DNA from: an uncultured bacterium | Lineage (GTDB): Bacteria > Krumholzibacteriota > Krumholzibacteriia > WVZY01 > JAKEHA01 | Direction of reading: 5' to 3' | Assembly (NCBI GenBank): GCA_964621155.1 | Contig: CAZULB010000001.1 | Location: 10,402-74,401 of the forward strand | Length of the DNA: 64,000 nt | Part shown: positions 34,695-63,628 of the stretch, one piece after another | Position numbering within the stretch: the stretch's first letter is position 1 | How the letters are laid out: each line of letters opens with the position of its first letter | Program-made: the position numbers and the translations under genes | Notes under the pieces: generated by a model | What the model saw: the letters and a program-made list of their open reading frames with translations, nothing else | Told to the model about the DNA's origin: nothing | Database searches by the model: none

Positions 34695-34814
34695 TTGTGT
34701 CCTTTCGAGGGGTGCGGATCGAGCGCGACGTAGCAGTACAAACGCGGAGGAGCGCGCAATGACCGAACCCTGGTCGCGAAGCAGGATAGAGATGCTGTGT
34801 AAATCGCGTATGAA

Positions 34815-34835: not shown

Positions 34836-34991
34836 ATCTGGCTGTCGCGCCAGTGTGCTCCGATCGGTCCGCGCGCGTTTCTATATTTCACTTCGGCTTT
34901 ATTCCAGATTCACACGACTTCCCTAGTATCGCCCCCGTTGATCCGCGCCCGTAGGTGTCGGGAAGCGGACACAGAGACACATTCACAGGAG

Positions 34992-37875: not shown

Positions 37876-38023
37876 CGGACCCTGAAAGGAGGAGCCCGGC
37901 AAAGCGGATTCGCACGAAAACCCCTCTCTTATTGGGTGAGAGGAAAGAATAAGGGATTGCAAGAGGTTGAAACAACCAGCAACGAAAGCAACAGCTACCA
38001 ACGTCTTTCTGGAGGAACTAAAC

Positions 38024-41474: not shown

Positions 41475-43088
41475 ATGGCCACGATCTCGCGTCGCTCCAG
41501 CCGTACTGTGCTGTTCCTGTGCTGTACACTCGTTCTCACGCTGTTCACCCACAACCTGTTTGCCGCCACCTGGACCGTTCGCAAGGACGGCACGGGACAG
41601 TTTACTACGATCGGCGCTGCCCGGGCGGTGGCCACGACCGGTGACATCATCGAGGTCGGTCCGGGGACGTATCCGGAGGAAGTCGACTTCGACTATGCGG
41701 TCACGCTGAAGTCGACGGACGGCGCCGCTACGACCATACTGGACGGCGAAGACGTCCGTCGTCTCCTGATTTTTCGCGCCGGAACGGGCACCGTGGTGGA
41801 CGGGTTCACGGTGCGCAGGGGCATTCAGGTCAGCGCCGGCGCCGGTATCCGCGTGCAGCTCACCGCGACGGCCACCATCAAGAATTGCGTATTCGAAAAC
41901 AACAATTCGGACTTCGACGGCGCCGCCATGATCTGTCGCGACGCCGGATCGCGCATGGACGTTCTGGACTGCGTTTTCAGGAACAATTTCGCCGTTCATC
42001 GTGGCGGCGCAGCCGTGGTAGTCATACAGGGAACCGCCACCTTCACCCGGTGCGTTTTCGACGGCAATGACTCCGGTGAAGTCGCTGCGCTCGGCTTCAA
42101 CACTGGCTCTGTCTGCACGGTGACAAACTGCCTGTTCAAGAACAACGGAAGCGAAATCTCCGGCATTTATGGCGAGCTCTCGACCGTCACCGTGACGGAC
42201 AACACTTTCGTCAACAACCACGCCTCCGGTGCGACCGTTCACATTTTTTCGTCCACCGTGGTGTTCAAGCGCAACATCCTGGCCCATGACCCGAGTGCGA
42301 ACGGTTGGGACGTCCTCAACAACACCAGTGAAGATCGCACCTGCAACGTCTACTGGCAGAATGAGAAACCCACGAGCTCGGGCGTCATCAACCCCGGCGA
42401 GCTGCTGGGAGATCCTCTCTTTTGCGATGCGCCCAACAATAACTTTAGCATCAACCTTATTTCGCCGGCGGCGCCGGGGCACAATGCTTGCGGTCTGCTC
42501 GGCGCATTTCCCGTAGGTTGCGGTCCGGTGGCGGTTGCAATCTCTTCGTTCGATGCGAAAGCCATGGGCGGTGTGGTATCACTTCACGGAACGTTTACGT
42601 CCGATCTGCGTGTACAGGCAGTGAACGTCTATCGCGGCGAAGGCGATGCTTCCTTCATCCGACTTGCCACGATCGTCGACTTCGAGGGGACCACTTTCGA
42701 CTACACCGATAATTCGGTGGCACCGGGACAATCCTACCGCTACCAGATCGGCGTCATCGACGGTGACGGCGAATTCATGTCTCCGATCGAACGCGTCAGC
42801 GTCGCACCACTGCTGAGCGGTATCGACCAGAATCGTCCCAACCCGTTCAATCCGCAAACCACGATTCATTACACACTGTCCACACCGGGGCGCATCACGT
42901 TGGCCGTGTACGATGCGACGGGGCGCCTGGTGCGCACATTGCTGGACGAGAACCGGGCCGCAGGGGCACAGGACGTGATCTGGAATGGGCAGGACGATCG
43001 CGGCAACGCCGTGGCGTCGGGCGTGTACTTCTACAGGATGACCGCCGGGAAGTTCAGCCAGACGAGGCGCATGGTGCTGCTCAAGTAG
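41475..43088 (+). CDS. Secreted right-handed parallel beta-helix protein with T9SS-type C-terminal sorting domain
   Basis: Signal peptide. Repeated NNxxxxGGA beta-helix rungs (CVFENNNSDFDGAAM, CVFRNNFAVHRGGAA, CLFKNNGSEISGIYG). C-terminus NPFNPQTTIHYTL...VYDATGRLVRTLL...GVYFYRMTAGKFSQTRRMVLLK. Confidence 0.65.
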   Translation: MATISRRSSRTVLFLCCTLVLTLFTHNLFAATWTVRKDGTGQFTTIGAARAVATTGDIIEVGPGTYPEEVDFDYAVTLKSTDGAATTILDGEDVRRLLIFRAGTGTVVDGFTVRRGIQVSAGAGIRVQLTATATIKNCVFENNNSDFDGAAMICRDAGSRMDVLDCVFRNNFAVHRGGAAVVVIQGTATFTRCVFDGNDSGEVAALGFNTGSVCTVTNCLFKNNGSEISGIYGELSTVTVTDNTFVNNHASGATVHIFSSTVVFKRNILAHDPSANGWDVLNNTSEDRTCNVYWQNEKPTSSGVINPGELLGDPLFCDAPNNNFSINLISPAAPGHNACGLLGAFPVGCGPVAVAISSFDAKAMGGVVSLHGTFTSDLRVQAVNVYRGEGDASFIRLATIVDFEGTTFDYTDNSVAPGQSYRYQIGVIDGDGEFMSPIERVSVAPLLSGIDQNRPNPFNPQTTIHYTLSTPGRITLAVYDATGRLVRTLLDENRAAGAQDVIWNGQDDRGNAVASGVYFYRMTAGKFSQTRRMVLLK

Positions 43089-46370: not shown

Positions 46371-49300
46371 TTACGCGACTTCGAACAAATGGTCTTCGGA
46401 CGGATTCTCGGCCGGGATGAGCGCGGCGCTGGCACGGGCCGCCGCATCCTCGTGTTCGACCACACGCTCGCGCCACTCGTCGCGGAGCTTGTCCTCACGG
46501 TAGCGCTTGAGAAAATAACCGATGGTCTCGACGCGAATCTTGATGGACCCGGCCGGGCGATTCTCGTCGAGATCCTTGAATGAGTAGTACGGCGTGCCCG
46601 AGCGTTCGATGATTTCTTCCACCACGCTGTAGATGGGGGCGTCGTGGCCGCACTTGAAGTTGGACACCTCGAGAGCCACGAGGTTCGGGTGCCGTGCGGT
46701 GTACTTGGCGGCCCACACCTTGCGTGACGTGTTTTCGCTGTAGGCGTTCTTCCACACGTCGCTGATGTCCATGGGGTGCGCGATATCGCCAGCGCGGACT
46801 TCGTCGCCGAACAACCAGTCCAGGATGTCGTCGTCGATGGGAAGTGAGTCCTGCGTGAAGACCGGATAGCCGAGTTTCTGGAACTCGACGAGGATCTCGT
46901 GGTTGATACCGGGGTCGTTGTGATACGGGCGCCCCAGCACCACGATTCCGATCTTGTTCTCACGTTCCAGCTCTTCCAGCACCTCACGCGCGGCAGCGCG
47001 CGTCGATACCACGTATTCGTCGAGGGCCTTGAAGCCGGCTTCCGCCGCGCGCTCGTTTTCTTTCTCCGAAATCCCGAGCACATCCTTCCACGCCGCGAAC
47101 ATCTGGCGCGCGAACAGGTGCGGCTGCGCGACATTCACCACCGGGCAGAGATACTGGATGCCCTTCTTGGCGAAGGTGTCACCTTCCTTGGTGAAGGCGG
47201 CCTTCACGGCCTCCGGCGTGGCCGTGACCGTCGGGCACGCGCGGCAATCCTGCGCCTTGTAGATCTCGCTCTTCAGGTCGTCGATCATGGGGAAAAAGAT
47301 CGCGTCCAGCGGCTTCTTCTCGTGCTGTTTGAAAATCAGATTGTGCACGTGCGGAATGCCGAGCTTGCTCGGGAAGCACGGGTCGATGGCACCGCGCTTG
47401 GCGCCTTCCTTATAGAGGTCCTCGGTGGTGTAGTCCGAGTACACGAGGTTATGCGGACGAATGCCGAGCGACTCGAAGTACGCCGAGAAGAGCGGATTGG
47501 TCGAGTACTGGTTCAGCATGCGCGGAATGCCGATGCGATAACTCTCGCGCTTCTTCATCTGCTCGATGCGCGCCTTTTGCCCGCTGGTGAAGGCGTGCTT
47601 CGGGAGCGGATCCGCCACACTCTCCGGCTTGAAGCTCTTGAACACGTCGCGAGCGCTCTTCTCGATGAAGTTGGGCGCAGCCTTGAGGCGCGCGTCGAGG
47701 TCCTTCTTGATCTCGCGCATCGACTCGACGTCTTCGACGAGTCCCTTCTCGCACGAATTATTGACGATCAGCCGCCGCGCGCCCGGCATGAGCGGCACTT
47801 TCGACTTGCGTGCGCCCGCGGTGGCGCTGGCGGTGTCGACTTCGCCCTGCTCGCGCTTGATGGCTTTCTTCGAAGCCTCGACGTCGATGAACGTGCGCAG
47901 GCACTCGTTCTTGCAGAAGTGGCAGCGCGTGTCTTCCGACGTGTGCGTCGTGTAGGAAATGGTCTGGATGGCGTCGAGCCCGATGAAGCTGGTTATACGC
48001 CCGTTGGCGTGCAGGCGCTGCGCTTCCAGTGCCGCGCCGATGGCGCCGCTTTCGCCGCAGTGCTTGTGCACGATCACTTCGGGCAAATCGTCGGCCGTGC
48101 CGCGGAAGCGCGATGAGATGAAATCGACCTGCGACTTCACCGCGGCCAGGTTTCTCTGTGTGCCGCCCTGCAGCACGAATTTCTTCCCCAGCTTGGCCAG
48201 GTTGGGGATCTGCGCGACATACAGCCAGATGTTCTTGGGCAACACCGCGGCCAATCCGGCCATGATCTCGCCCGCCGTCCAACCCTGGCGCTGGAAGTCG
48301 ACGATATCCGACTGCATGAACACCGCGCAGCCATAACCGAAGGTCGGCATCTGCTCGGCACCGAATGCGGTGTCGGCGAACTTCTCCACCGGGACACCGA
48401 ACTCGCCCGCCGTGCTCTGGAGGAAATAGCCGTTCCCCGCGGAACACTGCGTGTTGAGCTTGAAGTCTTTGACGCTCCCGTCTTTGAGCACCATGATTTT
48501 GATGTCCTGGCCACCCACGTCGCAGATCACATCCACGTCATCGTAGAAATGGAGCGCGCTCTCGGCGTGCGCCACGGTTTCGACGATGGCGGCATCGGCG
48601 GCCAGCACATCGCGCAGGACGTCTTTGGCATAGCCGGTCGTGCCCACGCCCAGAATTTCGAGGCGGGCGCCGAACGATTCGACGTGGCGCTGGATGTCGC
48701 CGATCACCTCGATGGTGTCCTTGATGGGATTGCCCTTCGAGAGCTGGTAGGCCTTGCAGATCACTTCACGCGCTTCATTGACGAGCACGGCTTTGGTGGA
48801 GGTGGATCCACCATCCAGGCCGATGAAGGCTCTCACGACTTCGCCGGGCGCAAAGGTCGCGGGCTCGAAGGGCTCTTCCCGATAGCGTTCCTTGAAGCTT
48901 GCGAGGTCGGCGGGATCTTTCGAGAGTCCGACGCTCGCCTTGGCCTTGCTCTGCTTGCGCCCGACGTTGATGTACTCCTCGAGCGCGGTCCACCCTTTAT
49001 AGACACCGACGCCTTCGTCCTCGTCCTTGCCATACTCGACGGCGCCGAGGGCGGCGTAGTACTGCGCATTCTGCGGCACCACGATGAGCGACTTGGGATC
49101 AACGCCCTCGGGCAATTTGACCTCTCGCTCTTTCCACGTGATGGGAATGTTGTGCTGCCATGCTTCGCGCATGCCGCGGATGTAGGTATTGGGTCCGCCC
49201 AGCAGAATGACTTCGGGACGAAGCGTGTGGCCGCGCGTCAGTACCGAGAGATTTTGTCCGATGATGGCCTCGAACAATGAGGCCATCAATTCTTCGGTGG

Positions 49301-49886
49301 GAATGCCCTGTTTCTGCAGGCCGTTGATGTCGGTCTCGGCGAAGACACCGCACTTCCCCGCCACGTGGTGCAGCTTGACCCCGTTATAGCCCTGCTCGCA
49401 CAACTGCTCGGGAGGAATGCGCAGCTTGGCGTTGATCTTGTCGATGACGGCACCGGTTCCACCCGCGCATTTGTCATTCATCGACGGAATCTTCTTCTTG
49501 CGGCCGGTCTCGGGGTCTTCCTTGAAGACGATGATCTTGGCGTCCTGTCCGCCCAACTCGATCACGGAACCTGCGGCCGGATGCACCTTCTCGACGGCGA
49601 GACACACCGCGTTCACTTCCTGCACGAACTTGGCGCCCAGTTTGGGCGCGATGTTCATGCCGCCGCTGCCGGTGATGAACACGCAGGTTTCCCCCGCCGC
49701 GGTGGCGGCGCGAAGCCCGTCGACTTCTTCGTCGATGCGCTTGAGGAACTCGAGAACTTTTTCGGGTTGTTTGGTCTCGTGGCGCTGGTAGTCGTGCCAC
49801 ACCATGGCGTCCGTAGCGGGATCGACCACGACCGCCTTGACGGTCGTGGAGCCGACATCCATGCCAATGAGGAACCGGGCAGCCAT
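46371..49886 (-). CDS. CoA-substrate-specific enzyme activase (two BadF/BadG/BcrA/BcrD-type ATPase domains) fused to a 2-hydroxyacyl-CoA dehydratase-like domain
   Basis: N-terminus FLIGMDVGSTTVKAVVVD and second copy FIGLDGGSTSTKAVLVN (acetate/sugar-kinase fold ATPase). The 1171-aa architecture matches COG1924+COG3580/3581 fusions. Confidence 0.75.
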   Translation of the reverse strand: MAARFLIGMDVGSTTVKAVVVDPATDAMVWHDYQRHETKQPEKVLEFLKRIDEEVDGLRAATAAGETCVFITGSGGMNIAPKLGAKFVQEVNAVCLAVEKVHPAAGSVIELGGQDAKIIVFKEDPETGRKKKIPSMNDKCAGGTGAVIDKINAKLRIPPEQLCEQGYNGVKLHHVAGKCGVFAETDINGLQKQGIPTEELMASLFEAIIGQNLSVLTRGHTLRPEVILLGGPNTYIRGMREAWQHNIPITWKEREVKLPEGVDPKSLIVVPQNAQYYAALGAVEYGKDEDEGVGVYKGWTALEEYINVGRKQSKAKASVGLSKDPADLASFKERYREEPFEPATFAPGEVVRAFIGLDGGSTSTKAVLVNEAREVICKAYQLSKGNPIKDTIEVIGDIQRHVESFGARLEILGVGTTGYAKDVLRDVLAADAAIVETVAHAESALHFYDDVDVICDVGGQDIKIMVLKDGSVKDFKLNTQCSAGNGYFLQSTAGEFGVPVEKFADTAFGAEQMPTFGYGCAVFMQSDIVDFQRQGWTAGEIMAGLAAVLPKNIWLYVAQIPNLAKLGKKFVLQGGTQRNLAAVKSQVDFISSRFRGTADDLPEVIVHKHCGESGAIGAALEAQRLHANGRITSFIGLDAIQTISYTTHTSEDTRCHFCKNECLRTFIDVEASKKAIKREQGEVDTASATAGARKSKVPLMPGARRLIVNNSCEKGLVEDVESMREIKKDLDARLKAAPNFIEKSARDVFKSFKPESVADPLPKHAFTSGQKARIEQMKKRESYRIGIPRMLNQYSTNPLFSAYFESLGIRPHNLVYSDYTTEDLYKEGAKRGAIDPCFPSKLGIPHVHNLIFKQHEKKPLDAIFFPMIDDLKSEIYKAQDCRACPTVTATPEAVKAAFTKEGDTFAKKGIQYLCPVVNVAQPHLFARQMFAAWKDVLGISEKENERAAEAGFKALDEYVVSTRAAAREVLEELERENKIGIVVLGRPYHNDPGINHEILVEFQKLGYPVFTQDSLPIDDDILDWLFGDEVRAGDIAHPMDISDVWKNAYSENTSRKVWAAKYTARHPNLVALEVSNFKCGHDAPIYSVVEEIIERSGTPYYSFKDLDENRPAGSIKIRVETIGYFLKRYREDKLRDEWRERVVEHEDAAARASAALIPAENPSEDHLFEVA

Positions 49887-50005
49887 AGTCGAGCGGAGTA
49901 TGGGCTACGTGCCGCCCCGGGGCAATAGTGGAAACCGATTATTCTATTTCGTATACTACCGGCGCTGACTGCAGTCCGCCCCACTATAAATGACGAGGTT
50001 TGGCC

Positions 50006-50377
50006 ATGTCCGCGACCTACCGTCTGAATGATGACGTTGTCGAGATGACACTCAACGGCAGCACTGGAATCGACGAGGTCATTCAAACTTTCCACAAGGC
50101 TCTCGACGACTCGGATACTCCGGAAGAGTTCGTGCTCCTCCTGGACGTTCGCAAGTCCACCTCACTCGCCACCCGACCCACGTCCGAAATCATCAAAGTC
50201 GCGGAGTACCTGGGACCGTTCCAGGACCGCGTCAAGCGCTGCGCCGTACTGGCCACGGAGAACATTCATTTCGGACTGAGCCGCCTGGGTGCTGTGTACA
50301 GCGAGACGGCCGGTGTGATGACGAGCGTCTTCCGCGACAAGGAAGAAGCCATCGACTGGCTGCACAGCGGCCAGTGA
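50006..50377 (+). CDS. Hypothetical small cytoplasmic protein (possible STAS/SpoIIAA-like fold)
   Basis: ATG 50006 with a GAGG RBS. 123 aa; no strong motif. Confidence 0.4.
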   Translation: MSATYRLNDDVVEMTLNGSTGIDEVIQTFHKALDDSDTPEEFVLLLDVRKSTSLATRPTSEIIKVAEYLGPFQDRVKRCAVLATENIHFGLSRLGAVYSETAGVMTSVFRDKEEAIDWLHSGQ

Positions 50378-50391: not shown

Positions 50392-53300
50392 CTATTTGAG
50401 CAGTACCATCTTCTTCGTGTCGACGAACTCGCCTGCGCGCATGCGGTAGAAATACACGCCCGAGGCGACGCGCTGTCCGCGATCGTCGTCTCCATCCCAG
50501 TGCACTGACCATGATCCTGGGTTGCGTCGCTCGTTCACGAGCTCGCGCACGCGGCGTCCGGACACGTCATAGATCGAGATGTTCACATCGGCGCCACCCG
50601 CGGGCACGTCATACGTGATCGCGGTAAGCGGATTGAACGGATTGGGAATGTTCTGCCCCAACGCGAACGCGAGCGGTCGATTGCCGGTACCGGTCGGCAA
50701 GAGATGGGGCTTTACGACGACCACGTGCGACGCCGCAGTAGTGGCGAGGAATCCAGGAATGGTCGCCGAGACAGTGACGCTGCCAGGATTCAGCGGACCG
50801 AACTCCACACCGCCGAGCACCGCCGACGCCGCCGATTGCGACTGGCCGGCCGGAATCGCCACGACGACTGGTGAGCCATTCAGCGCATCTGTGACGAGCG
50901 TCGCGAAACCAAGATCGGATAGCGACACCGTCGCATTCAGCGTCGGGCCGCCGGGGCGCACGAACTGCGGAGCCCCGACAGTGGCCTGATCACTGCTCGC
51001 CGTGCCCACTCGTACCACGAACGGATCATTGGGATCATTGTCCATGATTGAATCCGGCAAGAGCGCAACCTGCAGTGCAGGTTGCACCACGTTCGCCACG
51101 CGAACGCCCGAGGTGAAGGTGGGCACGCTGGCCGAGACCGTTGATGTGCCCATCGCAACACCCTGAACGTAAAAGGAAACCTGTGTGCTCCCGTTCGATA
51201 GCGGGAAGTCCAGCGAAGCCGTCCCCGGCGTGGAGAAATTAGGGGCAAGCAGTGCGACTGATGGGTCGCTGCTCGCGACGTGCACCGTAACGCCACCGTG
51301 CTGGGCCAGTCCCAACACCGCGCTGATAACACCGCTCTGCAATCCCTCCCCGACATCTTCAATGGCTCCCATGGTAACGATACGCTGCGAAACGACCACC
51401 TGCTGTGTCGCCGCGCCCATCGGCGTGAAGCCCGGGATGGTCGCCGCCACCAGCGTTGTCCCGGGCCCGAGCGGATCGAACGCGACGCCGCCGGTGGCAA
51501 CGGTGGCACCCGACGATGACGCGCCAGCCGAAATGTTGACCGTGACCGATGCGCCGGTGGCAGGCGTCGTCACCAGCTGACCGGCGACCGCGTCGGTGAG
51601 AGTGATGGTTGCGGTCACACCCGGACTTCCGGCGCGCACCGACTGCGCGGGATTGACGGACCCATTGCCGCTCGCGGGCAGTCCCACGCGCACCTGGAAC
51701 GGGTCGTTGGGATCCGTGGCGTCGAACGCCGCGGCGAGACCGATCATGTCGAGCGCCGGTGTGACGATGGTCGCCGTCTGGCTCGCCGAGATGAACCCGG
51801 GCGCCGACACGGTGATCAGTGACGTGCCCGTCACGTTCTCCATTCCCGAAACGTAGAACGTGGCAGTCGCGGATCCGTTGGCCACGGATAAATCGATGGA
51901 GGCGCTGCCCGCCGTGCTCGCGTTCGGCGCCACCAGCGCGACCGATGGGTTCGCGCTTGCGATGTGCGCCGTGACGCCTCCGTGATTCGACACGCTCAGT
52001 GTGGCCGAGTTCCCCGAGTTCTGAAGGCCGGCGCCGATGGTCCCCAGCGCACCGAGAGAAATGGTCGGTTGCGTGACGGCCACCGTCTGACTGGCGGCCG
52101 TGGTCGTAATGAAACCAGGAATCGTGGCGGAGACCGTGGTCGATCCGAGCGCGGTCCCGTCAAAGGCGACGCCGCCCGTCGCGACCGTCCCAGGCGACGT
52201 TGAATTTCCGGGGGTGATTGATACCACCACCGAATCTCCGGTGAGCGGCGTGGTGATGAGGTCGCCGACCGGATGGCTGGAATTCTTGATGGTGGCCGTG
52301 AGGGGGACACCCCCCGCACGAATGTTTTGCGTTGAATTCACGCTGGTGTTGCCCCCGGATGGCAATCCGACGCGGACATAGAACGGGTCGCTCGGAGCGA
52401 GCGTGTCGAGGGTTGTGACCAGACCGCTGATGTCGAGCGCCGGCTGCACGACGGTCGCCGTCTTGCTCGCCGAGGTGAACCCGGGCGCCGACACGGTAAT
52501 CAGTGATGTGCCGGTCACGTTTTCCATGCCGGAGATGTAGAAGGTCACACCGGTGGATCCGTTCGGCACGAACGCGTCGAACGAGGCGTTCCCCGCGGTG
52601 GTTGCGGTGGGAGCCACGAGGGCCACGGATGGGTTGGCGCTTTCGACGTGCACCGTCACGCCGCCGTGCTGCGACGCGCTCAGCGTGGCCAAGTTCCCCA
52701 AGCCCACAAGACCCGAGCCGACATTGGAAATTGCGTTGAGCGTGATCACGGGCTGCGTGACGGTCACCGTCTGACTGGCGTTCGTCGTCGCTATGAAACC
52801 GGGGATGGTGGCGGACACGGTGGTCGAGCCAAGCGCGGTCCCGTCGAAAGCGACGCCGCCAGCCGCGACGGTCGTCGGCGAGAAGTAAGAACCGACGGGG
52901 ATCGTCACCGTGACGGAGTCCCCGGTGAGGGCCGTGGTGATGAGATCGCCGACCGCGATTGCGGAATTCTTGATGGTGGCCGTGACGGGGACACCCCCGG
53001 CACGAATGCTTTGCGTCGGATTCACGCTGGTGATACCGCCGGATGGCAGGCCGATCGTGACCCAGAACGGGTCCACGGGATCGAGCGTGTCGAGGGTGGT
53101 GACCAGACTGCTGATGACGAGCGCGGGTTGCTGAACGTTTGCGAGCCGGCTGGCGTTGCCAAAGCCGGGCGCGGAAACGGTGATCAAGGAAGCGCCGCTC
53201 ACTCCTTCGAGACCCGACACGACGAACGACGTGCCCGTGAGCCCGTTGGCAAGGAAGATGTCGATAGAAGCAGTTCCGACGGTCGTTGCATTGGGCGAGA

Positions 53301-54189
53301 CCAACGCCACCGACGAATCGGCGCTCTCCACGTGAATGGTCACGCCGCCGTGCTGCGACCCGCTCAGTGTCACCCCATTGGCCAAACCCTGCAGACCCGA
53401 ACCCACGTTTCCGATTGCATTGAGCGTGATCACGGGCTGCGTGACGCTCACATTCGCGCTGGCCGCCGCGGTGGCAATGAATCCGGGAATGCTTGCCGAC
53501 ACCGTGGTCGACGCGACGTTCAGGCCGTCAAAGGCCACACCGCCCGCGGCAACGCTCGTCGGCGAATAGTAGAGACCGGGTGTGATAGAGACGGTGACCG
53601 TCTGGCCCGTAAGGGGCGTGGTAATGAGCTGCCCGGCGAACGCGTTCGAGTTGACGATCGTTGCCGTGAGTCCCGTGCCGCCGATGCGCACGCTTTGCGT
53701 TGGATTCACGGTGCCGTTGCCGCTCGATGGCAACCCGATCTGGACCCAAAACGGGTCCGCAGGATCGAGCGTGCCGATGGAGGTGACCAGGTTGGAGATG
53801 GCGACCGCCGGCTGAACAATGGTCGCGGTCCGGCTCCCGCTGGTAAACCCGGGCGCCGACACCGTGATCATCGCGGTGCCGGTGACGTTCTCCATGCCCT
53901 GAACAACGAATTGCACGCTGGATGACCCGTTGGGGACAAACACGTCGAACGATGCGCCGCCGGCGGTGGAGATGTTGGGCGCGACCAGAACCACCGACGG
54001 GTTGTCGCTCTCGACGTGCACGGTCTTGCCCCCGTGCTGCGACGTGCTCAAGGTGGCCGTGTTGGCGCTGCCCTGGAGTCCGCTCCCCACATTGGAGAGC
54101 ACGGGCACAGTGATGGTTTGTGCACGCGCGTTCGACGCCGCGAGCGTGCCCAGGAATGCAATGACAAGAATCAGCGGTGAGCGTTTCAT
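50392..54189 (-). CDS. Giant secreted repeat protein (5 x ~230-aa tandem domains) with T9SS-type C-terminal sorting domain
   Basis: Signal peptide MKRSPLILVIAFLGTLAASNARA. Repeated blocks begin (I)T(V/L)..(S/G)NVGSGLQG...SQHGG(K/V)T(V/I)HVES.DPSVALVAPN. C-terminus NPFNPLTAITYDV...ISIYDVSGRRVRELV...GVYFYRMRAGEFVDTKKMVLLK. Confidence 0.7.
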   Translation of the reverse strand: MKRSPLILVIAFLGTLAASNARAQTITVPVLSNVGSGLQGSANTATLSTSQHGGKTVHVESDNPSVVLVAPNISTAGGASFDVFVPNGSSSVQFVVQGMENVTGTAMITVSAPGFTSGSRTATIVQPAVAISNLVTSIGTLDPADPFWVQIGLPSSGNGTVNPTQSVRIGGTGLTATIVNSNAFAGQLITTPLTGQTVTVSITPGLYYSPTSVAAGGVAFDGLNVASTTVSASIPGFIATAAASANVSVTQPVITLNAIGNVGSGLQGLANGVTLSGSQHGGVTIHVESADSSVALVSPNATTVGTASIDIFLANGLTGTSFVVSGLEGVSGASLITVSAPGFGNASRLANVQQPALVISSLVTTLDTLDPVDPFWVTIGLPSGGITSVNPTQSIRAGGVPVTATIKNSAIAVGDLITTALTGDSVTVTIPVGSYFSPTTVAAGGVAFDGTALGSTTVSATIPGFIATTNASQTVTVTQPVITLNAISNVGSGLVGLGNLATLSASQHGGVTVHVESANPSVALVAPTATTAGNASFDAFVPNGSTGVTFYISGMENVTGTSLITVSAPGFTSASKTATVVQPALDISGLVTTLDTLAPSDPFYVRVGLPSGGNTSVNSTQNIRAGGVPLTATIKNSSHPVGDLITTPLTGDSVVVSITPGNSTSPGTVATGGVAFDGTALGSTTVSATIPGFITTTAASQTVAVTQPTISLGALGTIGAGLQNSGNSATLSVSNHGGVTAHIASANPSVALVAPNASTAGSASIDLSVANGSATATFYVSGMENVTGTSLITVSAPGFISASQTATIVTPALDMIGLAAAFDATDPNDPFQVRVGLPASGNGSVNPAQSVRAGSPGVTATITLTDAVAGQLVTTPATGASVTVNISAGASSSGATVATGGVAFDPLGPGTTLVAATIPGFTPMGAATQQVVVSQRIVTMGAIEDVGEGLQSGVISAVLGLAQHGGVTVHVASSDPSVALLAPNFSTPGTASLDFPLSNGSTQVSFYVQGVAMGTSTVSASVPTFTSGVRVANVVQPALQVALLPDSIMDNDPNDPFVVRVGTASSDQATVGAPQFVRPGGPTLNATVSLSDLGFATLVTDALNGSPVVVAIPAGQSQSAASAVLGGVEFGPLNPGSVTVSATIPGFLATTAASHVVVVKPHLLPTGTGNRPLAFALGQNIPNPFNPLTAITYDVPAGGADVNISIYDVSGRRVRELVNERRNPGSWSVHWDGDDDRGQRVASGVYFYRMRAGEFVDTKKMVLLK
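50650..54117 (-). repeat. ~690-bp tandem coding repeats (about 5 copies) within CDS 50392..54189
   Basis: Protein periodicity of ~230 aa. The antisense plus-frame ORFs (around 51.6, 52.2, 52.9 and 53.6 kb) recur with near-identical translations. Confidence 0.6.
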
Positions 54190-54261: not shown

Positions 54262-54573
54262 TCACGTGTATCCGTTCTTGAAGTTTTCCCACACGCTTGT
54301 CGTACCCGAGACGATGCCGGCGTGGGCAACCGCCGGGAGCGATTGCAGGTATGCGAGCGCGCGGACCGCAATCGTGTTGGGACTCTCTGCGCTCCACCGC
54401 TCCACCTGCCCGGCCACCAACCCGAGATTCTTCACCCAGGCGCTATCGCCACTCGTCACGGTCCCGCCGCCGCCACCTCCTCCGCCCCCGTCGTCCTTGG
54501 GTTCGGTACTGTTGTTACCGGAGCAAGCGGCGAAGACGACAAGAACAAAAAGGACGAGCGTTTCATGTGGAGC
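54262..54573 (-). pseudogene. Truncated N-terminal paralogue (about 100 aa) of lipoprotein gene 57251..59329, with an apparent 1-nt frameshift in the signal-peptide region
   Basis: ATG AAA CGC at 54573 reads MKRSS... in one frame. The downstream homologous frame (LFVLVVFAACSGNNSTEPKDDGGGGGGGGGTVT...TIAVRALAYLQSLP) aligns to MKRFALFLLIVFAACSSDNGTAPKDPGGGGGGGGGGAVT...SIAVRAAGYLSQQP of the intact gene and stops after ~100 aa. Confidence 0.35.
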
Positions 54574-54575: not shown

Positions 54576-57239
54576 CTACTTGAGAAGAACCATCTTCCTG
54601 GTTTCGACAAAATCGCCCGCCCGCATGCGGTAGAAGTACACACCCGACGCCACGCGCTGGCCGCGATCGTCGTCGCCATTCCATTGCACGGACCAGCTTC
54701 CCGGACCGCGGTGCTCGTTGACGAGTTCACGCACCCGCGCACCCGCGACGTCGTAGATCGTCATGTTCACGTCCGCTCCCCCCGCCGCCACTTCATAACG
54801 AATGGTGGTCTGCGGGTTGAACGGGTTGGGAACCGCCTCGTGCAATGCAAACTTGAGGGCGGGCTTGTCGCCCACCGCGGTGGCGGCCCCCGCGCCGATC
54901 ACGAACGGTGAAAGACTTGTCGTCGTGCCACAAATCACGTCGACGTCGGTGTCGAGGAGGGTGGTGATGTTGACCCAAGCGGGTGGATTGAGCGACGCGT
55001 CGTAGTGGAGCAATTGCAGCGATGCCTCGGGCACCGAGAGTGCGAACGGGTCGTACTCGATACACACCTCGATGGTGCCGTTGAAGCTGACCAGGGTGCT
55101 TATGTTGTAGAACCTCCCGTCACCGGCTGTGAAGGACCCGGGGAGGGCCGGGCCGGTGGACGTGACCTCGAGATTGGTTCTGCCCGACTGGGACACGTTC
55201 GCGAACGTGATGCCCACATTGTGCAATCCGCTTCCGTTTTCGTCCCACGGCTGAATGTGCACGTTGTTCCCCACCGGCGTGTTCGGAAGCAGGAACGCGA
55301 CCGTGTTCGAGACCACGCTGCGATTGCAGTTCAGGTCCAGGGCAATCACCGACCAGTACTGATCTGTGCCCCCGGGGTTGGAGATGGTGTAGAGCGTGTC
55401 GGTTGCCGTGTCGTAGTAGCTTTCGAAGGGAGGCTGTACCGGAATCTGACTCATGTAGACGGCGTAGTACATGATGTCGGACGCGGGTCGCGACCAGTGG
55501 AGCTGCAGCAAGCCGGGCGGAACGATGTGCGACGCGAGGACCGACGCCGGCGGCGCGATGTTGTCGAACGAAGTCCCATGCCGGATGTTCGATGATTCGA
55601 GCGAGGAGATGTAACCGAGCACCCGGAAGTTCTGCCCGAATAGCTGCCAGCACGTCGAATCATCCTGGGTCGGTTCGTTGGCGACATAGAGGTCGGTTCC
55701 GTTGTCGTTGATCCAGTCGATTGTGATCCATGCTCCGTTGTCGTTGCGCTGCACCTCGTACAGGTAGTTCTCACCGGGACGGTCGAGATCCTTCCAACGC
55801 ATGGTCACGTGCCGGCCCTCGTCGCCCGGCGTGTCAACGATCGATGTGATAACCGGCTCGGGATTTCCCCACGCTCCGGCCGCACTCATGCGCTGCGCAT
55901 AGGTCTGCGAGGTACCGCTGCGGGCATCCGACCAGGCGATCATGCTGGCGCCGTTGACGCTGGGCGCGATCACGGGGGTGACTTGTGCCCCGGTGGCAAG
56001 ACAGACTTCGGAGCCTTGCAGCACGAAGAAGAGATTGCCGAGCGCATCAACGCGGCGCGCATAGATGTTGTCTCCCGCGACGCGCTGATCCTGCCAGGTG
56101 ATGATGGCGCCGTTGGAGCCGTCGGTCGTCAGGGTGGGCGCAACCTGGTGGCCGGACGCGGTACAAACCGCAACTCCATCGGCTGTCCACAGGGCGGTGC
56201 CGCTGGCGTTCACGCGCCGGGCGTAGATGTCGGCATTGCTGAGGCCGTTGCGCATGTCGCGCCAGGTCGCGATGCCGCCGCCTGCGCCGTCGGCAATCAA
56301 GATGGGATCGTACTGATCACCGAGCGAGCCACAGAGCACCACGCCGTTCGCGGCCCACAGCATATTGCCTGCGCCGTCGGTGCGCTGGGCCCAGATATCG
56401 GTGTGGGAGATGCGTCGATCCTGCCACACGACGATGGCGCCACCGGCACCGTCGGAAACAATCTTCGGGACATTCTGACTCGCGCCCGCGTTGCAGACGA
56501 TGACTCCGTCCGCGGTCCACAGCGGCGTTCCGCTGGCGTTCACGCGACGGGCGTAGATGTCGGCCTGCAGACTGCTGACGCGCTCATCGTGCCACACCAC
56601 GATGGCGCCACCCGCGCCGTCGGATGCGATCGAGGGACCATCCTGGTTGTTCGCTGCGGTGCACAACGCAACGCCGTTCGTCGCCCACGCCCGCTTGCCG
56701 TCCGAATCGTAACGCGCGGCATAGATGTCCGCGCTGCCGCTGCGCGTGTCGTCCCACGCGATGATGGCCCCGCCCGCGCCATTCGACGCAATCACGGGGT
56801 GTGCCTGCGTGCCGGTCGCCGTGCAGACAGCGACCCCGTTGCCGGTCCAGGCCGACTTGCCGGACCCATCTACTACCTGCGCGAAGATGTCCCCGGTGGC
56901 GTTACGCCCGTCTTCCCAGACAATGATCGCTCCACCCGCACCATCGGCGATGATCGCGGGATTGATCTGATCGCCGGCCGCGGCGCAAATCGTTGCGCAC
57001 CACACGGTGTTTCCCGCGGGAGTAATCCGGGACGCGACAATGTCGTAGGCTCCATTACTCGCGTCGCCCCACGCGATGATGGCTCCGCCGGCGCCGTCAG
57101 AGGCGATCGCGGGTGCCTGCTGCGCCCCCGTCTTCGCGCACGGCGGAAGGCCGTTGATCACCCATTGTGCGTTCGCGGTCGCGATTGCCACAACGCACAC
57201 AAACGCGGTTGTAAGTATCAGGGTTGCGTGCCTCTTCAT
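54576..57239 (-). CDS. Secreted protein with 8 tandem ~47-aa repeats (DGAGGAI[IV]xW...DIYAxRV...GV.VCTA) and T9SS-type C-terminal sorting domain
   Basis: AGGAG RBS. Signal peptide MKRHATLILTTAFVCVVAIATANA (ATG 57239). C-terminus NPFNPQTTIRYEV...MTIYDVAGARVRELV...GVYFYRMRAGDFVETRKMVLLK. Confidence 0.7.
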   Translation of the reverse strand: MKRHATLILTTAFVCVVAIATANAQWVINGLPPCAKTGAQQAPAIASDGAGGAIIAWGDASNGAYDIVASRITPAGNTVWCATICAAAGDQINPAIIADGAGGAIIVWEDGRNATGDIFAQVVDGSGKSAWTGNGVAVCTATGTQAHPVIASNGAGGAIIAWDDTRSGSADIYAARYDSDGKRAWATNGVALCTAANNQDGPSIASDGAGGAIVVWHDERVSSLQADIYARRVNASGTPLWTADGVIVCNAGASQNVPKIVSDGAGGAIVVWQDRRISHTDIWAQRTDGAGNMLWAANGVVLCGSLGDQYDPILIADGAGGGIATWRDMRNGLSNADIYARRVNASGTALWTADGVAVCTASGHQVAPTLTTDGSNGAIITWQDQRVAGDNIYARRVDALGNLFFVLQGSEVCLATGAQVTPVIAPSVNGASMIAWSDARSGTSQTYAQRMSAAGAWGNPEPVITSIVDTPGDEGRHVTMRWKDLDRPGENYLYEVQRNDNGAWITIDWINDNGTDLYVANEPTQDDSTCWQLFGQNFRVLGYISSLESSNIRHGTSFDNIAPPASVLASHIVPPGLLQLHWSRPASDIMYYAVYMSQIPVQPPFESYYDTATDTLYTISNPGGTDQYWSVIALDLNCNRSVVSNTVAFLLPNTPVGNNVHIQPWDENGSGLHNVGITFANVSQSGRTNLEVTSTGPALPGSFTAGDGRFYNISTLVSFNGTIEVCIEYDPFALSVPEASLQLLHYDASLNPPAWVNITTLLDTDVDVICGTTTSLSPFVIGAGAATAVGDKPALKFALHEAVPNPFNPQTTIRYEVAAGGADVNMTIYDVAGARVRELVNEHRGPGSWSVQWNGDDDRGQRVASGVYFYRMRAGDFVETRKMVLLK
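55900..57170 (-). repeat. ~140-bp tandem coding repeats (8 copies) within CDS 54576..57239
   Basis: GAGGAIIAW / GAGGAIIVW / GAGGAIVVW / GAGGGIATW / SNGAIITW blocks at regular ~47-aa spacing. Confidence 0.55.
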
Positions 57240-57250
57240 TTCACTACTCC

Positions 57251-59329
57251 TCAACGCGCCGCATCCGGATCGGGCAGGAAGAACGGCGTAATATCGTTCC
57301 ATCTGATTTTTGCCTGCCCGTCCAGCTCCGGGCCAAGATGGGTGACCAGGGGAGTCACCGAACATGAGCCGCGCTCGCCCTTCAAGATTTCGAAATCGTT
57401 GTTCATCGGGATGAGGAACGCGGTCGCCTGTCCGTGGTCGTCGAACAAACAGTCCTCGGTTGCGACCTGAACGTAGAGCGGCTTGCTGAAGTTCTCGCAG
57501 TCTCCCGACCGCTTCCACGTCCCCGCCGTGAACACGGCGAGGACTTGCATGGCCAGTCGCAGCTGATGAGCCTTGGTATCGACGGATCCGAAATACACGT
57601 AGAGCCCATCGGGACTTCCATACCAGACGGACTCGATCTTTCCTCCCTGCCCGAGCGTGTAGGTGTCCGTGCAATCGGCGATGGTTTCCGAGTATTCGCC
57701 GCCCGTGGTGATTTCGATCCTGGAGTCGTCGCTTGGCCCGAAGAGCACTGTGGTTTCGAACGGCTCCTCACCCGGCTCGTCGCGGAACGAATGAATATCG
57801 GCGCGGAAGCGGAGGCTTATTTTCATCTGGGCGGTTTGACTGCCGGGATCATCGCGGTCGTACGTCCACTCGCCCTTCCACTCGGTGAGGTTTACGGGAT
57901 TGCTAATGCGTGCATCGTCTCCGGTCCCGACCTTGACGACGACGGTGCCGGATGCATTGCTGCCCGTGTCGGGCAGGTCGCAGTTGATTTCCGACGGGAA
58001 CCACTCGACATTGTCGAGCCGCACGTCGTTGATAGTCACCTCACGGTTGCCTTCACCAGGATCGGTTCCGAAAAGCCCCGCGATGATGAGTCGGCGGCGA
58101 TCGGGGGTTTCGTCGACCGAGAGGAACTGGATGGTCGGCGACAGGAGACCGAAGTCGCCGTTCATCCGTGTCGGTGTGAGTACGGCGTTCTTGTATGGGT
58201 CATCCGTAAGCTGGCGGTGAACTTTCATGTCGTTCAGCACCTGATCAATGTTGAACGCCCGCTGCTTCGGGTCTTCGGGTGAGATTTCGTTCGTCCCCAA
58301 CAGACGGTCGAACAGGTATTTCATCGCTTTGTACGCGAACCTGTCATCCACCTGGGTGGTCCATCCCAGGTAGAGGGACGCACCGTTGTTCTTGAAGGCC
58401 TGTTGCATGTCGAACGCGGCAGCGGATGCACTCGAACATGCGTCGATGAAGACGAGGCTGTTTTTTCCGAAGCTCATGTTCTCCGCCACGAACCCGGCCG
58501 TGATTCCATAGTGGCACACATTCCGGCATTTCCCCTGCTCGTCGCGGCCTCGTTCCGTCATGATCACAAGATCACCGTTGTGGAGCATCTTGTTATACGA
58601 TTCGAGCGTGTTCCACTCGTGCGTCGTTGTCGTCCACAAACCGTAGACGGGAATCCCGTCATCGTTCTTCCCCACCCCTCCGTGCGTATCGAGGTAGAAA
58701 ATGCCGTTGCCACGAACTTTCTTCATGTCGTCAACACTGCCTTCGAGATCGCCTGCATTCACGTAGTGTCCCTTGCGCAGCAGCATCTTTAGGACTCCCA
58801 GAGGATTGACAAAACACGAGCCGATCGCATTGACGGCACGGAATGTGGGCTGCGCGGGAAGCTCGAGTCCCTTGGATGGAATGCGCATGGCTTTCATCAT
58901 CTGCCGGCCGGCCGGGATGGCAACACGCCTCGGGGGCGCGACCCGGCTCGGCGCTTGCGCAGCGACGTCGTCGATGAGCGTGTCGGTCGCAGCGCTTTGG
59001 TTGCGATTGTTGGGAAAGATCAGGGAAACGCCGTCCGTGAAGACGGCCCAGACCGTCGTCTCTCCCGGTGTGATGCCGGAGGACTTGATCAATGGTTGCT
59101 GGCTCAAGTAGCCGGCCGCGCGCACGGCGATGCTGTCCGCGCTCATTCCGTCCCACAGGTCGAGTTGCGCCGCGAAATCCTGCATCGCCTCGACACGAAG
59201 CGAGTCGATATGAGTGACCGCTCCGCCACCGCCCCCCCCGCCACCACCACCGGGATCCTTGGGAGCGGTTCCGTTGTCACTCGAGCACGCGGCAAACACG
59301 ATCAGGAGAAAAAGGGCGAAGCGTTTCAT
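57251..59329 (-). CDS. Lipoprotein with poly-Gly tether and caspase-like (clan CD, gingipain/legumain/clostripain-type) cysteine-peptidase-like domain
   Basis: Signal peptide with lipobox MKRFALFLLIVFAACS. A run of 12 Gly. Candidate catalytic dyad: His in YLDTHGGVG and Cys in SLVFIDACSSAS (H-G ... D-A-C). Confidence 0.55.
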   Translation of the reverse strand: MKRFALFLLIVFAACSSDNGTAPKDPGGGGGGGGGGAVTHIDSLRVEAMQDFAAQLDLWDGMSADSIAVRAAGYLSQQPLIKSSGITPGETTVWAVFTDGVSLIFPNNRNQSAATDTLIDDVAAQAPSRVAPPRRVAIPAGRQMMKAMRIPSKGLELPAQPTFRAVNAIGSCFVNPLGVLKMLLRKGHYVNAGDLEGSVDDMKKVRGNGIFYLDTHGGVGKNDDGIPVYGLWTTTTHEWNTLESYNKMLHNGDLVIMTERGRDEQGKCRNVCHYGITAGFVAENMSFGKNSLVFIDACSSASAAAFDMQQAFKNNGASLYLGWTTQVDDRFAYKAMKYLFDRLLGTNEISPEDPKQRAFNIDQVLNDMKVHRQLTDDPYKNAVLTPTRMNGDFGLLSPTIQFLSVDETPDRRRLIIAGLFGTDPGEGNREVTINDVRLDNVEWFPSEINCDLPDTGSNASGTVVVKVGTGDDARISNPVNLTEWKGEWTYDRDDPGSQTAQMKISLRFRADIHSFRDEPGEEPFETTVLFGPSDDSRIEITTGGEYSETIADCTDTYTLGQGGKIESVWYGSPDGLYVYFGSVDTKAHQLRLAMQVLAVFTAGTWKRSGDCENFSKPLYVQVATEDCLFDDHGQATAFLIPMNNDFEILKGERGSCSVTPLVTHLGPELDGQAKIRWNDITPFFLPDPDAAR

Positions 59330-60724: not shown

Positions 60725-63628
60725 TCATCCCACGAAGGCGCGGGCGCGTCGATGTCGTATGAAGAGCCCGACGGCAACCAGGAAAAAAGCTCCTGCCAAC
60801 GCCTTCAGGGCGAAACTCAATGTTACCAGGCGCTTTTCAACGGGTAGTGTCCGTGCCCCATCGCCCACCACCGTGAAGCCGGACCAGTAGAAGGGATGCG
60901 CCCAACGCGTCATGTGGCTGGCGTCGAGTTGGGCGTGACGCAGTGCCGTAGCCACGGACTCGCCGTCGGAAAGATTGCGATAGAACGATCGCATGATGAC
61001 GGCCGTGGCCCTGTCATCCACCGGCCACAGGCTGGCGACCACAACCGGTACCCCCGCGCTCAAGAATGCGGCGGTCAGACCGATGGTTCCCTCTCCCGTG
61101 GTCATGCGGCCGCCGGCAGTTTCACACGCGGACAACACGGCGAGTCGCGCAGGGATATCCAGTTTCGCGATCTGCCACGCCCGCACGTACGGATCGGACG
61201 GAAACGTTCGTTCGATGGTGAGCGAATCCACGTCGGAAAGAAAACCGGCGCGCGTGTGCGTCGTGGCCGTGGCACGCGATGCAAGCGTCTCTGCGGTCGC
61301 ACTCTTCGTACTCCTCAGTTCGATCCCCGACCACCATGGAGAACGATCCACCAGCAGAGCATGCGACGCGATATGCAGCACATCGGCGCGGCCGGCGGCC
61401 TCCCCGAACGCGTCCGGCCCGCTCAGATCGGCAAGCGTTTCGACGTGACGATACTGCCGCGCCAGGTCGCGCACCTCTTTACGCGCTCCCGACAGCCCCA
61501 CCGCGGAGGCGCTGATTGCAACCACTCGCAGCGGCGTCTGAGGTTCCGGTCGGAGGGCGGTTCGCTGGAGCACGAGCACGCCGGCCGACGGAACCTGAAC
61601 GACATCCCGCTTCTGCATCAGCCCATCGTTTCCATCGCCGATGATCAGAAGGCCGAACGGAATCGACGCAAAGTATCCGTCCGGACACACGAACACGCGC
61701 GTCGATGCATCGACAATAGTCGCCGCGCCGCCCAGGATGTCGCGGCCGAGCGCGCGTTGTACGGCGACGAGCCGATCGACGCTGTATTCGTCGCGCAGTG
61801 AGTTATCCGTGCTGGCGAGCACGGTGCGCAGCAGTTGGACGCGTTCCTGGAGCCCCGACGCCGGGCCAGGCAGTTCGACGAACCGTAACGAGTCCGCCGT
61901 TACCGCGGCGAGAAACGACGCCTTCACCCCCACGCAGAAATCGAGCACCGCTTCTCCCGGGCGCAAAGCGGATTGCAAATCCGCCAGCGTCGCGGACTGT
62001 TCCGGCAATCGTGCCGCGTTACCCGAGGCGCCGGCTCGGGGTCGGTTGATGCGGTCGAGAAGTGCGCGTGTCTTGACGCGCTGAATCGCATCGAAGAAGG
62101 AGCGCTCACGAACCGACGGCGCGGCCGACTCGGGATACTCGAGCAATACGCGCCCCGCCTCGACTACATCCTGCGCCACCCATTGCCCGTAGACCTCGCG
62201 CCACTCTGCCGTGCTGATCCCGCCGCGCACCGCCGTGAGACTGTCGAGGGCAGCGTAATATGTCTTTGTGGCCTGCGCACGATCGCCCGCCACACGCAGA
62301 CACTTGCTTTCAAGAAACATCGCCGCGACCATGGCGCGTCTTTGTCCGTTGGTCAGAGCCACTTCCCGTGCACGTCGCGCGCATAGAAGGGCCTCCTGAG
62401 TGTTTCCGTTGTCGGCGTAGAGACGCCCGAGCACCAGGTTCGCTTCGGGCAGGTTCTCGGCGTAGAAACTGGTGCCGCGGGCCCTCATATGCCCGGACAG
62501 GAGTTCGATCGCGGCGGCGGCACTGTCGCTCGAAAGGGATTCGGCCAGGTCCACGATGAGCAGGTCACGATGCTGGGCTTCCAGCCCGCCGGTGCGAATC
62601 AGGCGGCGCATGATGCTCCTCGCGTTCGCGTGCCGGCCCTGTGCCACCCGGAGGACGGCAAGTTGGTAGTCCAGAACAGGAATCTGCTCCAGCGTCCCCT
62701 GCGTCTCGCACACGGCGCGCGTCTGGTCGAGCACCTTTTCGGCGGTTTCGTAATCACCCAGCTCCCCGAGTCGAGCGGACAGGTTGGTGGCGGGAATGAC
62801 CATCGCGACGGGGGACCTGAGTTCCTTCGCCAGAACCAGGGCACGTTGGAGATACTCCCAGGCCCGGCTCATGTCGCCCTGAAAGTTCTCCATGGCGGAG
62901 AGATTGTTGAGCGACCACATCTCGTTCATGCGGTCGCCCACCTCCCGCGCTGCCACCCACGATTGCTTGTACCACCGAATGGCCGCGGGCCCGTCGCCGA
63001 CGGCGCTGGCAATACGTCCCAATCCGATCAAGGGTTCAATTTCAAATCGCTTCGTGCCGGCGGCGTGGAAGAGCGCGAGTGCACGCTCGTATTCCTGCTT
63101 CGCGCGTTTCTGGTCGCCGGTAGCGTGGAAGACCATGCCGAGAGACGTGCGCGCCCACGCTTCGTCGACCGGTGCGTGCGCACGCTCGGCGAGCATCAGA
63201 CGGTGCTCGAACCAGCGAGCCGCCTCATCGGGCTGTCCGGCGCTCCAGCGCGCGAACCCTTTGAAACTCAGCGCGGGCATGAGACCCATCGTGTCCTGCA
63301 CGGACTCCGCGATGCGTATACCGGTGTCAATTTCGCGTTCGGCATCAGGATGCCCGAGCATCAGGAGCGCGCGCCCACGCTGTGTGATGGCGCGGCCGAA
63401 GAGCATCGAATCCCCGCTCGCTTCGGCGCGCCGCATGAAGGTGGACGCAATAGCACGGAGCGAGTCGTATTGTCCGGTAGTGAACAGATTCTCGCTGAGG
63501 TTGCGCAGGGAGTCTGCGGTTGTATGCGAGGACGGGGCCGGAGGCGCGGCACCCGACGTCAGCACGCCCGCGATCAGAAGCGAGCAGACGGCGAGCGTAA
63601 GACGACGGGCGCGGGAAAGGGCAACCAC
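60725..63628 (-). CDS. TPR-repeat CHAT-domain protein (caspase-like) with N-terminal signal peptide and C-terminal TM anchor
   Basis: Multiple TPR helices. C-terminal CHAT signature: His (ADVLHIASHALL) and Cys (LAVLSACETAGG) motifs. Terminal hydrophobic segment LKALAGAFFLVAVGLFI. Confidence 0.75.
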   Translation of the reverse strand: MVALSRARRLTLAVCSLLIAGVLTSGAAPPAPSSHTTADSLRNLSENLFTTGQYDSLRAIASTFMRRAEASGDSMLFGRAITQRGRALLMLGHPDAEREIDTGIRIAESVQDTMGLMPALSFKGFARWSAGQPDEAARWFEHRLMLAERAHAPVDEAWARTSLGMVFHATGDQKRAKQEYERALALFHAAGTKRFEIEPLIGLGRIASAVGDGPAAIRWYKQSWVAAREVGDRMNEMWSLNNLSAMENFQGDMSRAWEYLQRALVLAKELRSPVAMVIPATNLSARLGELGDYETAEKVLDQTRAVCETQGTLEQIPVLDYQLAVLRVAQGRHANARSIMRRLIRTGGLEAQHRDLLIVDLAESLSSDSAAAAIELLSGHMRARGTSFYAENLPEANLVLGRLYADNGNTQEALLCARRAREVALTNGQRRAMVAAMFLESKCLRVAGDRAQATKTYYAALDSLTAVRGGISTAEWREVYGQWVAQDVVEAGRVLLEYPESAAPSVRERSFFDAIQRVKTRALLDRINRPRAGASGNAARLPEQSATLADLQSALRPGEAVLDFCVGVKASFLAAVTADSLRFVELPGPASGLQERVQLLRTVLASTDNSLRDEYSVDRLVAVQRALGRDILGGAATIVDASTRVFVCPDGYFASIPFGLLIIGDGNDGLMQKRDVVQVPSAGVLVLQRTALRPEPQTPLRVVAISASAVGLSGARKEVRDLARQYRHVETLADLSGPDAFGEAAGRADVLHIASHALLVDRSPWWSGIELRSTKSATAETLASRATATTHTRAGFLSDVDSLTIERTFPSDPYVRAWQIAKLDIPARLAVLSACETAGGRMTTGEGTIGLTAAFLSAGVPVVVASLWPVDDRATAVIMRSFYRNLSDGESVATALRHAQLDASHMTRWAHPFYWSGFTVVGDGARTLPVEKRLVTLSFALKALAGAFFLVAVGLFIRHRRARAFVG

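Follow-up and report, generated by a model that had tools for sequence, protein, structure and literature searches.

The closest described counterparts of the protein considered here are type A cargo proteins that use the type IX (Por-type) secretion system (T9SS) of Bacteroidota, in which a signal peptide and a passenger of tandem beta-sandwiches are followed by an immunoglobulin (Ig)-like C-terminal sorting domain (CTD) of about 80 residues. The Por_Secre_tail domain is listed as a surface anchor of multi-Ig fibrillar-adhesin-like proteins (PMC8286594), and the surface-layer (S-layer) proteins TfsA and TfsB of Tannerella forsythia are also large proteins with a T9SS CTD (PMC4175972). The signal peptide, the tandem passenger and the CTD have a parallel in a gene found in a 64,000-nucleotide stretch of DNA (hereafter, the window) from an uncultured bacterium assigned to Krumholzibacteriota (assembly GCA_964621155.1, contig CAZULB010000001.1). 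This gene is a single open reading frame (ORF) of 1265 aa (50392–54189), as a preliminary description of the sequence had stated; it lies on the minus strand and consists of a predicted signal peptide, five tandem 228-aa units and a T9SS-type CTD. In our opinion, the product is probably a T9SS-anchored surface stalk or coat protein with multivalent adhesion and without enzymatic function.

The period of the array is exact. Direct-repeat analysis gave blocks exactly 684 bp apart, with one family (D4) having all five copies, and a shift of the ORF against itself produced nucleotide identities of 57%, 52%, 47% and 35% at lags of 684, 1368, 2052 and 2736, the background being 27% ± 2.6%. The protein shifted against itself was 49%, 42% and 32% identical at lags of 228, 456 and 684 aa. 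The five tandem domains of ~230 aa (~690 bp) proposed in the preliminary description were therefore recovered with a period of 228 aa or 684 bp, far above chance, and the periodicity expected from a self-comparison of the region at 50.4–54.2 kb was present as peaks at multiples of 684 nt. The motifs quoted there for the repeat starts (NVGSGLQG...SQHGG.T.HVES) were likewise found. The units start at aa 33, 261, 489, 717 and 945 and occupy, on the minus strand, positions 53410–54093 (R1, aa 33–260, Ig-like domain A and then B), 52726–53409 (R2, aa 261–488), 52042–52725 (R3, aa 489–716), 51358–52041 (R4, aa 717–944) and 50674–51357 (R5, aa 945–1172). Direct repeats, the unit profile and the structural model supported R1, R2 and R4; direct repeats, AlphaFold2 (AF2) and hhalign were used for R3; alignment and the profile were used for R5, which is the most divergent unit and the last ~10 residues of which form a linker to the CTD. 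Tandem Repeats Finder gave no report for the gene because the longest period it considers is 500, and a six-frame scan of the window revealed no further copy of the repeat outside the gene.

The units had been described as near-identical, and this did not hold. Pairwise identities among R1–R4 are 54–72% for protein and 59–72% for DNA, R5 is ~47% identical to R1 in a gapped alignment with a deletion of 2 aa in R5, and no two repeats have an exact DNA stretch of more than 27 bp in common, which is the longest such match. According to Nei–Gojobori estimates for R1–R4, dS is 0.80–1.37 and dN is 0.22–0.42, with dN/dS of ~0.3; approximately one synonymous change per synonymous site has accumulated among the units, under purifying selection. 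These values bear directly on a rival explanation, according to which the gene encodes a recently expanded adhesin of near-identical tandem repeats, with a strain-variable copy number of the contingency type and a tendency to collapse in assemblies. The exact 684-bp period and the lack of indels between R1–R4 are in favour of such an expansion, but exact periodicity does not imply recent amplification, and the DNA identities, the dS values close to 1 and the short exact matches contradict it.

The homologues bear on the same question. A word-indexed search returned >500 of them; the top 120 were scanned with the unit profile, and the set was later enlarged to 242 proteins (proteins and loci or contigs are designated below by P and L numbers, respectively). 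One protein, P0002, encoded on a 79-kb NCBI contig, is identical to the product of the gene, and ten homologues have 68–82% identity; the source labels include Candidatus Krumholzibacteriota, Latescibacterota and Gemmatimonadaceae. About 50 of the top 120 are 1257–1299 aa long and have the same layout of signal peptide, five units and CTD. Five units were counted in 50 of the 53 CTD-class proteins of the set of 242 (homologues at 37–82% identity) and in 10 of 11 relatives at 68–100% identity, the remaining one having seven. The likely copy-number variation announced earlier is not supported within this range of 37–82% identity, where homologues rather than strains are compared.

The position of each unit is also conserved. 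In 51 five-unit proteins, the nearest neighbour of 251 of the 255 units is the same-position unit of another protein, and one unit only has its nearest neighbour within its own protein. In averaged identity matrices, same-position identities between proteins are 71–77% in clade A, 64–70% in clade B and 47–53% in clade C, compared with different-position identities of 46–64%, 43–54% and 36–42%, respectively. Between clades A and B, this diagonal fades, the same-position identities for the five positions being 57, 54, 53, 51 and 51%, whereas R1–R3 inside one clade-A protein are 62–66% alike. Because of the likeness of R1–R3 within a protein and the fading of the between-clade diagonal, the internal units seem to have been homogenised slowly over very long periods while R5 stood apart, and to this extent the data agree with the expansion scenario. 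Its other support is P0001 (76% identity, 1720 aa, contig L001), the only clear copy-number variant, which has seven units; the two extra units are R4-like and 74–76% identical to each other, so this gain appears to be old as well. As 251 of 255 units keep their positional nearest neighbours, and the number of five units is kept too, the array is apparently ancient and under a length constraint. Judging from these comparisons, it may be concluded that the five-unit array is old and that its length is held by selection, the array being neither recently amplified nor hypervariable; recent expansion, found wanting in all three sub-clades, is very improbable.

A further alternative is that the repeat array represents an artefact of assembly or gene calling. 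Only the general risk of repeats in metagenome assemblies speaks for it. Independent assemblies (NCBI, ENA, JGI and Logan) contain the identical P0002 as well as dozens of homologues with five units, direct reading of L002, L006–L009, L037 and L045 showed homologous genes of equal length, and the predicted fold is of high confidence. Since there is so little exact identity between the units, a short-read assembler is unlikely to collapse them, and the assembly-collapse risk mentioned in the preliminary description should be considered low. An artefact is therefore exceedingly improbable, and both this explanation and that of recent expansion are effectively excluded. The original interpretation stands in part, namely as regards a large surface protein of five tandem units with a sorting domain, and fails with respect to recent expansion, copy-number variation and assembly collapse.

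An AF2 model of R3, taken singly, reached a pLDDT of 95.8 and a pTM of 0.87. Domain A corresponds to residues ~1–95 of the unit and domain B to residues ~96–220, and an hhalign comparison of these two domains within a unit gave a probability of 94.7% (E 6e-8). The high-confidence prediction is that every repeat is composed of two homologous Ig-like beta-sandwiches, and the whole protein of ten such domains. The question, raised earlier, of whether one repeat would prove Ig-like or Big-like has a divided answer: the model is Ig-like, comprises two domains and has a fold-level resemblance to Big_1/Big_2 domains, which is real, but neither the protein nor 25 diverse units gave a hidden Markov model (HMM) hit to Big_1 (PF02369) or Big_2 (PF02368). 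Scanning of the whole protein and of the 25 units singly gave no Pfam family match for the unit; the only hits, all of them weak, were to CarboxypepD_reg (best E 1e-5, in 12 of the 25 units) and to DUF7363. A sequence search of the PDB with the unit profile yielded a best E of 0.47. The intimin/invasin (Big_1) arrays and the Big_2 arrays of Leptospira Lig proteins are built from single domains of ~90 aa, whereas the unit found here, 228 aa long, pairs two different domains in a fixed manner; the protein also differs from them in having no beta-barrel anchor, no C-type-lectin tip and no Big HMM match.

Foldseek searches with the ten-domain model placed at the top arrays of MG domains, known from alpha-2-macroglobulin and complement, and of ASH/MSP domains, known from hydin and CFAP65, with E values of 1e-27 to 1e-15 and TM-scores of 0.1–0.17. 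The reason for these best matches is that such arrays likewise consist of beta-sandwiches in long series, and the resemblance is generic. An alpha-2-macroglobulin-like identity was rejected on account of TM-scores not exceeding 0.17 and the absence of thioester or bait regions; a CUB domain is lacking as well.

The C-terminal part of the protein (aa 1173–1265; 50392–50673 on the minus strand, including the stop codon) carries the T9SS sorting domain recognised in the preliminary description. It scored 33.8 bits against TIGR04183, the NCBIfam model of the T9SS type A sorting domain (cut-off 23), and 38.6 bits against FlgD_ig (PF13860, cut-off 27). The match covers aa 1182–1262 of 1265, i.e., the extreme C-terminus, and the motifs PNPFNP...IYDVSGRRV...GVYFYRM...KKMVLLK, the last of which ends the protein, agree with the tail motifs PNPFNP, IYDxxGRxV, GxYFYR and KMVLLK of type A cargo. 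By sequence, the solved structure nearest to it is 3osv, the Ig-like domain of FlgD (E 1e-3), and there is a weak match to the CTD of PorU, 6za2 (E 0.15). Unlike the cargo of Bacteroidota, this protein belongs to a metagenome-assembled genome (MAG) of the Krumholzibacteriota/Latescibacterota type, and its CTD is FlgD_ig-like.

By analogy with Bacteroidota, the export steps of which are taken here from PMC11285876, the N-terminal signal peptide would direct the protein to Sec, and in the periplasm the ten Ig-like beta-sandwiches are predicted to fold as five rigid two-domain units. The type-A CTD would then be recognised by the T9SS for passage through the outer membrane and would be removed, with attachment of the new C-terminus to the cell surface. 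The product may be a ~112-kDa elongated stalk that extends outward from the cell, repeat 1 being in the distal position. Nine residues, QTITVPVLS (54094–54120, minus strand), form the mature N-terminus between the signal-peptide site and R1, the repeat profile beginning at aa 33; Pfam and the repeat profile revealed no non-repeat domain, and a separate N-terminal tip domain is absent. Therefore, any binding would reside in the repeated units themselves.

Several points weigh against a T9SS-anchored stalk or coat. No gene of the T9SS machinery (SprA/Sov, PorV, PorU, PorK/L/M/N) was recognised among the scanned ORFs of the 64-kb window, and the CTD remained below the cut-off of Pfam Por_Secre_tail PF18962 (20.2 vs. 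27 bits). The full-length AF2 model has a pTM of only 0.43; hence, the geometry between units is uncertain, and the rod shape is assumed. Neither a ligand-binding motif nor an adhesive tip domain was found in the protein: it has a T9SS-type anchor domain in common with the multi-Ig fibrillar-adhesin-like proteins carrying Por_Secre_tail, but not the distinct adhesive region, usually far from the anchor, by which such proteins are recognised (PMC8286594).

A literature search pairing Krumholzibacteriota or Latescibacteria with T9SS found no papers. A complete Latescibacterota chromosome (CP070677.1, L063) encodes, 3.5 kb from a five-repeat homologue, a 775-aa protein with Peptidase_C25 and a T9SS-type CTD (17366–19693, minus strand). 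Its identification as the PorU sortase was rejected (55.6 bits at an NCBIfam cut-off of 420), and by its sequence it may be either a gingipain-like cargo or a very divergent sortase.

Alternatively, the protein could be a multivalent glycan-binding one, surface-bound or released, in which the Ig-like units would act as carbohydrate-binding modules (CBMs) and capture polysaccharide to serve an organism rich in TonB-dependent receptors. The conserved columns of the unit are mostly Gly, with F115, Q133 and R136 in addition, the conserved motifs include DPxDPF and Q..R.GG, and no aromatic platform can be composed from them (Trp constitutes 0.3% and Tyr 0.9% of the protein). No CBM family match was obtained in Pfam, and no glycoside hydrolase gene adjoins the repeat gene in the window. 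Such a function is doubtful.

More weight should be given to the suggestion that this is the S-layer protein of the lineage, i.e., a T9SS-exported subunit of fixed size which self-assembles into a two-dimensional coat, like TfsA/TfsB of T. forsythia. The acidic, Cys-free composition (isoelectric point of 4.4, 7% charged residues) and conserved length are like those of S-layer proteins, and the multi-Ig-like architecture resembles that of Geobacillus SbsB/SbsC; the T. forsythia precedent (PMC4175972) points in the same direction. The structural similarity to SbsB/SbsC, however, is generic Ig-like (TM-score of 0.41 or less), at least one MAG has two paralogues (L003 and L005 of SMAG_U8802), and members of the wider family have from 3 to 16 copies of the unit and also differ in their anchors, which is more reminiscent of a modular stalk. 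An S-layer of this kind is possible, if rather unlikely. The Bacteroidota O-glycosylation motif D(S/T)(A/I/L/V/M/T) was not enriched in the protein (5 observed, 5.3 expected).

The two-domain unit is distributed far beyond the relatives of the protein with the T9SS-anchored layout. When 1.84 billion cluster representatives, clustered at 50% identity, were searched exhaustively with the profile, 1997 proteins had E<=1e-3, of which 1340 had E<=1e-10 and 647 had E<=1e-30, so that ~2,000 clusters carry it. When species-representative genomes were scanned with the five window repeats as the alignment, it was found only in MAGs, the closest loci being L002 (labelled Latescibacteria, 86%) and L003 (labelled Krumholzibacteriia, 85%). 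Other labels include many Gemmatimonadota/Longimicrobiales, Acidobacteriota, Desulfobacterales, Geobacter/Pelobacter, Nitrospirota, Scalinduaceae, Gammaproteobacteria, Eisenbacteria and Fibrobacteraceae, of which L037 encodes a 1267-aa five-unit CTD protein; Desulfobacterota and Planctomycetota are also named among the carriers. Among the 242 proteins, 121 have five full units, 82 have four, 21 have three, 11 have 6–7 and five have 11–16.

Two further layouts were recognised. In the second one, a lipoprotein-type signal is followed by Big_1, Big_2, DUF11 or PKD domains and then by four or five units at the exact C-terminus. These lipoproteins of Gemmatimonadota-labelled relatives and other MAGs are 1500–2000 aa long, have a lipobox (..LLxxC) and always end in '...VTVTP/NP/SP' (P0012, P0030, P0032, P0104 and others; loci L031–L033, L036, L042 and L050), and the polarity of the module relative to the membrane anchor is opposite to that of the CTD form. 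The third layout comprises a signal peptide, up to 16 units (11–16 in five proteins), a Gly/Pro-rich stretch and a C-terminal Cys, with endings such as ...GGGGGC, ...DPPQC and ...SGGGC and lengths of up to 4452 aa; it is represented by P0121 (locus L062), P0122, P0123, P0137, P0172 and P0181.

Because it is shared by differing layouts and anchors, the unit may be regarded as a reusable extracellular module for which four or five copies are strongly preferred. Typical adhesin stalks do not show such a strict number of five (or four) copies combined with positional orthology; this would imply a constraint of length or assembly, and the protein may accordingly be viewed as a candidate for a major component of the envelope in phyla without a cultured, characterised surface. 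A broader proposal, which is speculative and on balance improbable, is that the 228-aa unit is an undescribed, widespread cell-envelope module with a copy number held at 4–5, reused with at least three anchors (T9SS CTD, N-terminal lipoprotein signal, and long arrays with a C-terminal Cys), and that in Krumholzibacteriota/Latescibacterota-type bacteria it forms the main surface-lattice or fixed-length spacer protein. If true, these uncultured phyla would have an S-layer family of their own that is new. As large surface proteins, repetitive and T9SS-tailed, are common, the gene itself changes no picture; the unit, present in ~2,000 clusters and yet without a Pfam model or a sequence relative among solved structures, deserves a family definition.

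The start codon and the predicted Sec signal peptide (aa 1–23) lie at 54121–54189 on the minus strand. By inspection, this peptide, MKRSPLILVIAFLGTLAASNARA, followed by QTITV, shows a basic n-region, a hydrophobic core and an A-x-A site, after which comes Gln (MKRSPLILVIAFLGTLAASNARA|Q). The same A-x-A|Q junction is present in the homologues of L002, L007, L008, L009, L011, L037 and L045. The predicted signal-peptidase sites always have Gln after A-x-A, examples being ARA|QTI, ANA|QWV in the upstream neighbour, SHA|Q and AQA|QTI. As judged from these sites, the 'Bacteroidetes Q-rule' of pyroglutamate N-termini (ref 13 of PMC11285876) seems to apply in these phyla too. When the surroundings of the gene were scanned for sigma-70 promoters and intrinsic terminators, nothing exceeded the shuffled expectation.

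Tails of the same type (...KMVLLK) end five genes of the window: 11959–14403 (−), 37967–39748 (+), 41475–43088 (+), the repeat gene at 50392–54189 (−) and its upstream neighbour at 54576–57674 (−). The CTD of the repeat gene is 78% identical to that of this neighbour in protein and 74% in DNA over 296 nt, compared with 47–54% for the CTDs of 11959–14403 and 37967–39748; an exchange of domains, or a recent common origin confined to the tails, is suggested by this. The neighbour encodes a beta-propeller-like protein of ~870 aa with ~50-aa repeats 'DGAGGAIIxW.D.R...DIYAQR'; its score against the beta-propeller repeat TIGR04275 is sub-threshold (60.8 vs. 85 bits), no Pfam family except the tail was found, and orthologues occur in L003 (60% identity), L002 and L001. 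The order orf57251, neighbour, repeat gene is also found in L003. A TPR+CHAT (caspase-like) gene of the window (60725–63628, minus strand) has counterparts near the repeat gene in three close relatives, L002, L004 and L005, and at distant homologue loci a Ser/Thr-kinase+TPR gene lies directly upstream on the same strand (L007 5408–7546, L026 5016–7163, L063 7525–9663). Such TPR-CHAT or kinase-TPR genes could have a regulatory role as neighbours that recur, or they could be there by coincidence, the genomes being rich in kinases.

Between the stop of the upstream neighbour (54576) and the start of the repeat gene (54189), there is a frame at 54262–54566 (−) in which a signal of lipoprotein type (..LVLFVLVVFAACSGNN) precedes nine consecutive Gly and ~75 further residues, and which has no in-frame start codon. 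An ATG at 54566 (MKRSSFLF...) is one base off this frame and reaches a stop after 36 codons. From the sequence, this looks like a one-base frameshift, i.e., an assembly error or a small-lipoprotein pseudogene. Past the 3' end of the repeat gene, 46371–49886 (−) encodes a 1171-aa fused double BcrAD_BadFG ATPase with DUF2229, of the CoA-enzyme activase type; located between these two genes, a small ORF with weak likeness to SpoIIAA (50000–50377, plus strand) is convergent with the repeat gene, with only 14 bp between the stop codons. Farther away, a TonB-type uptake cluster at 29546–37751 comprises a TPR protein, an unusually long (471-aa) MotA/ExbB-family protein, DUF3450 and a 937-aa CarboxypepD_reg-Plug outer-membrane receptor, and the CTD-bearing protein encoded at 37967–39748 comes after it.

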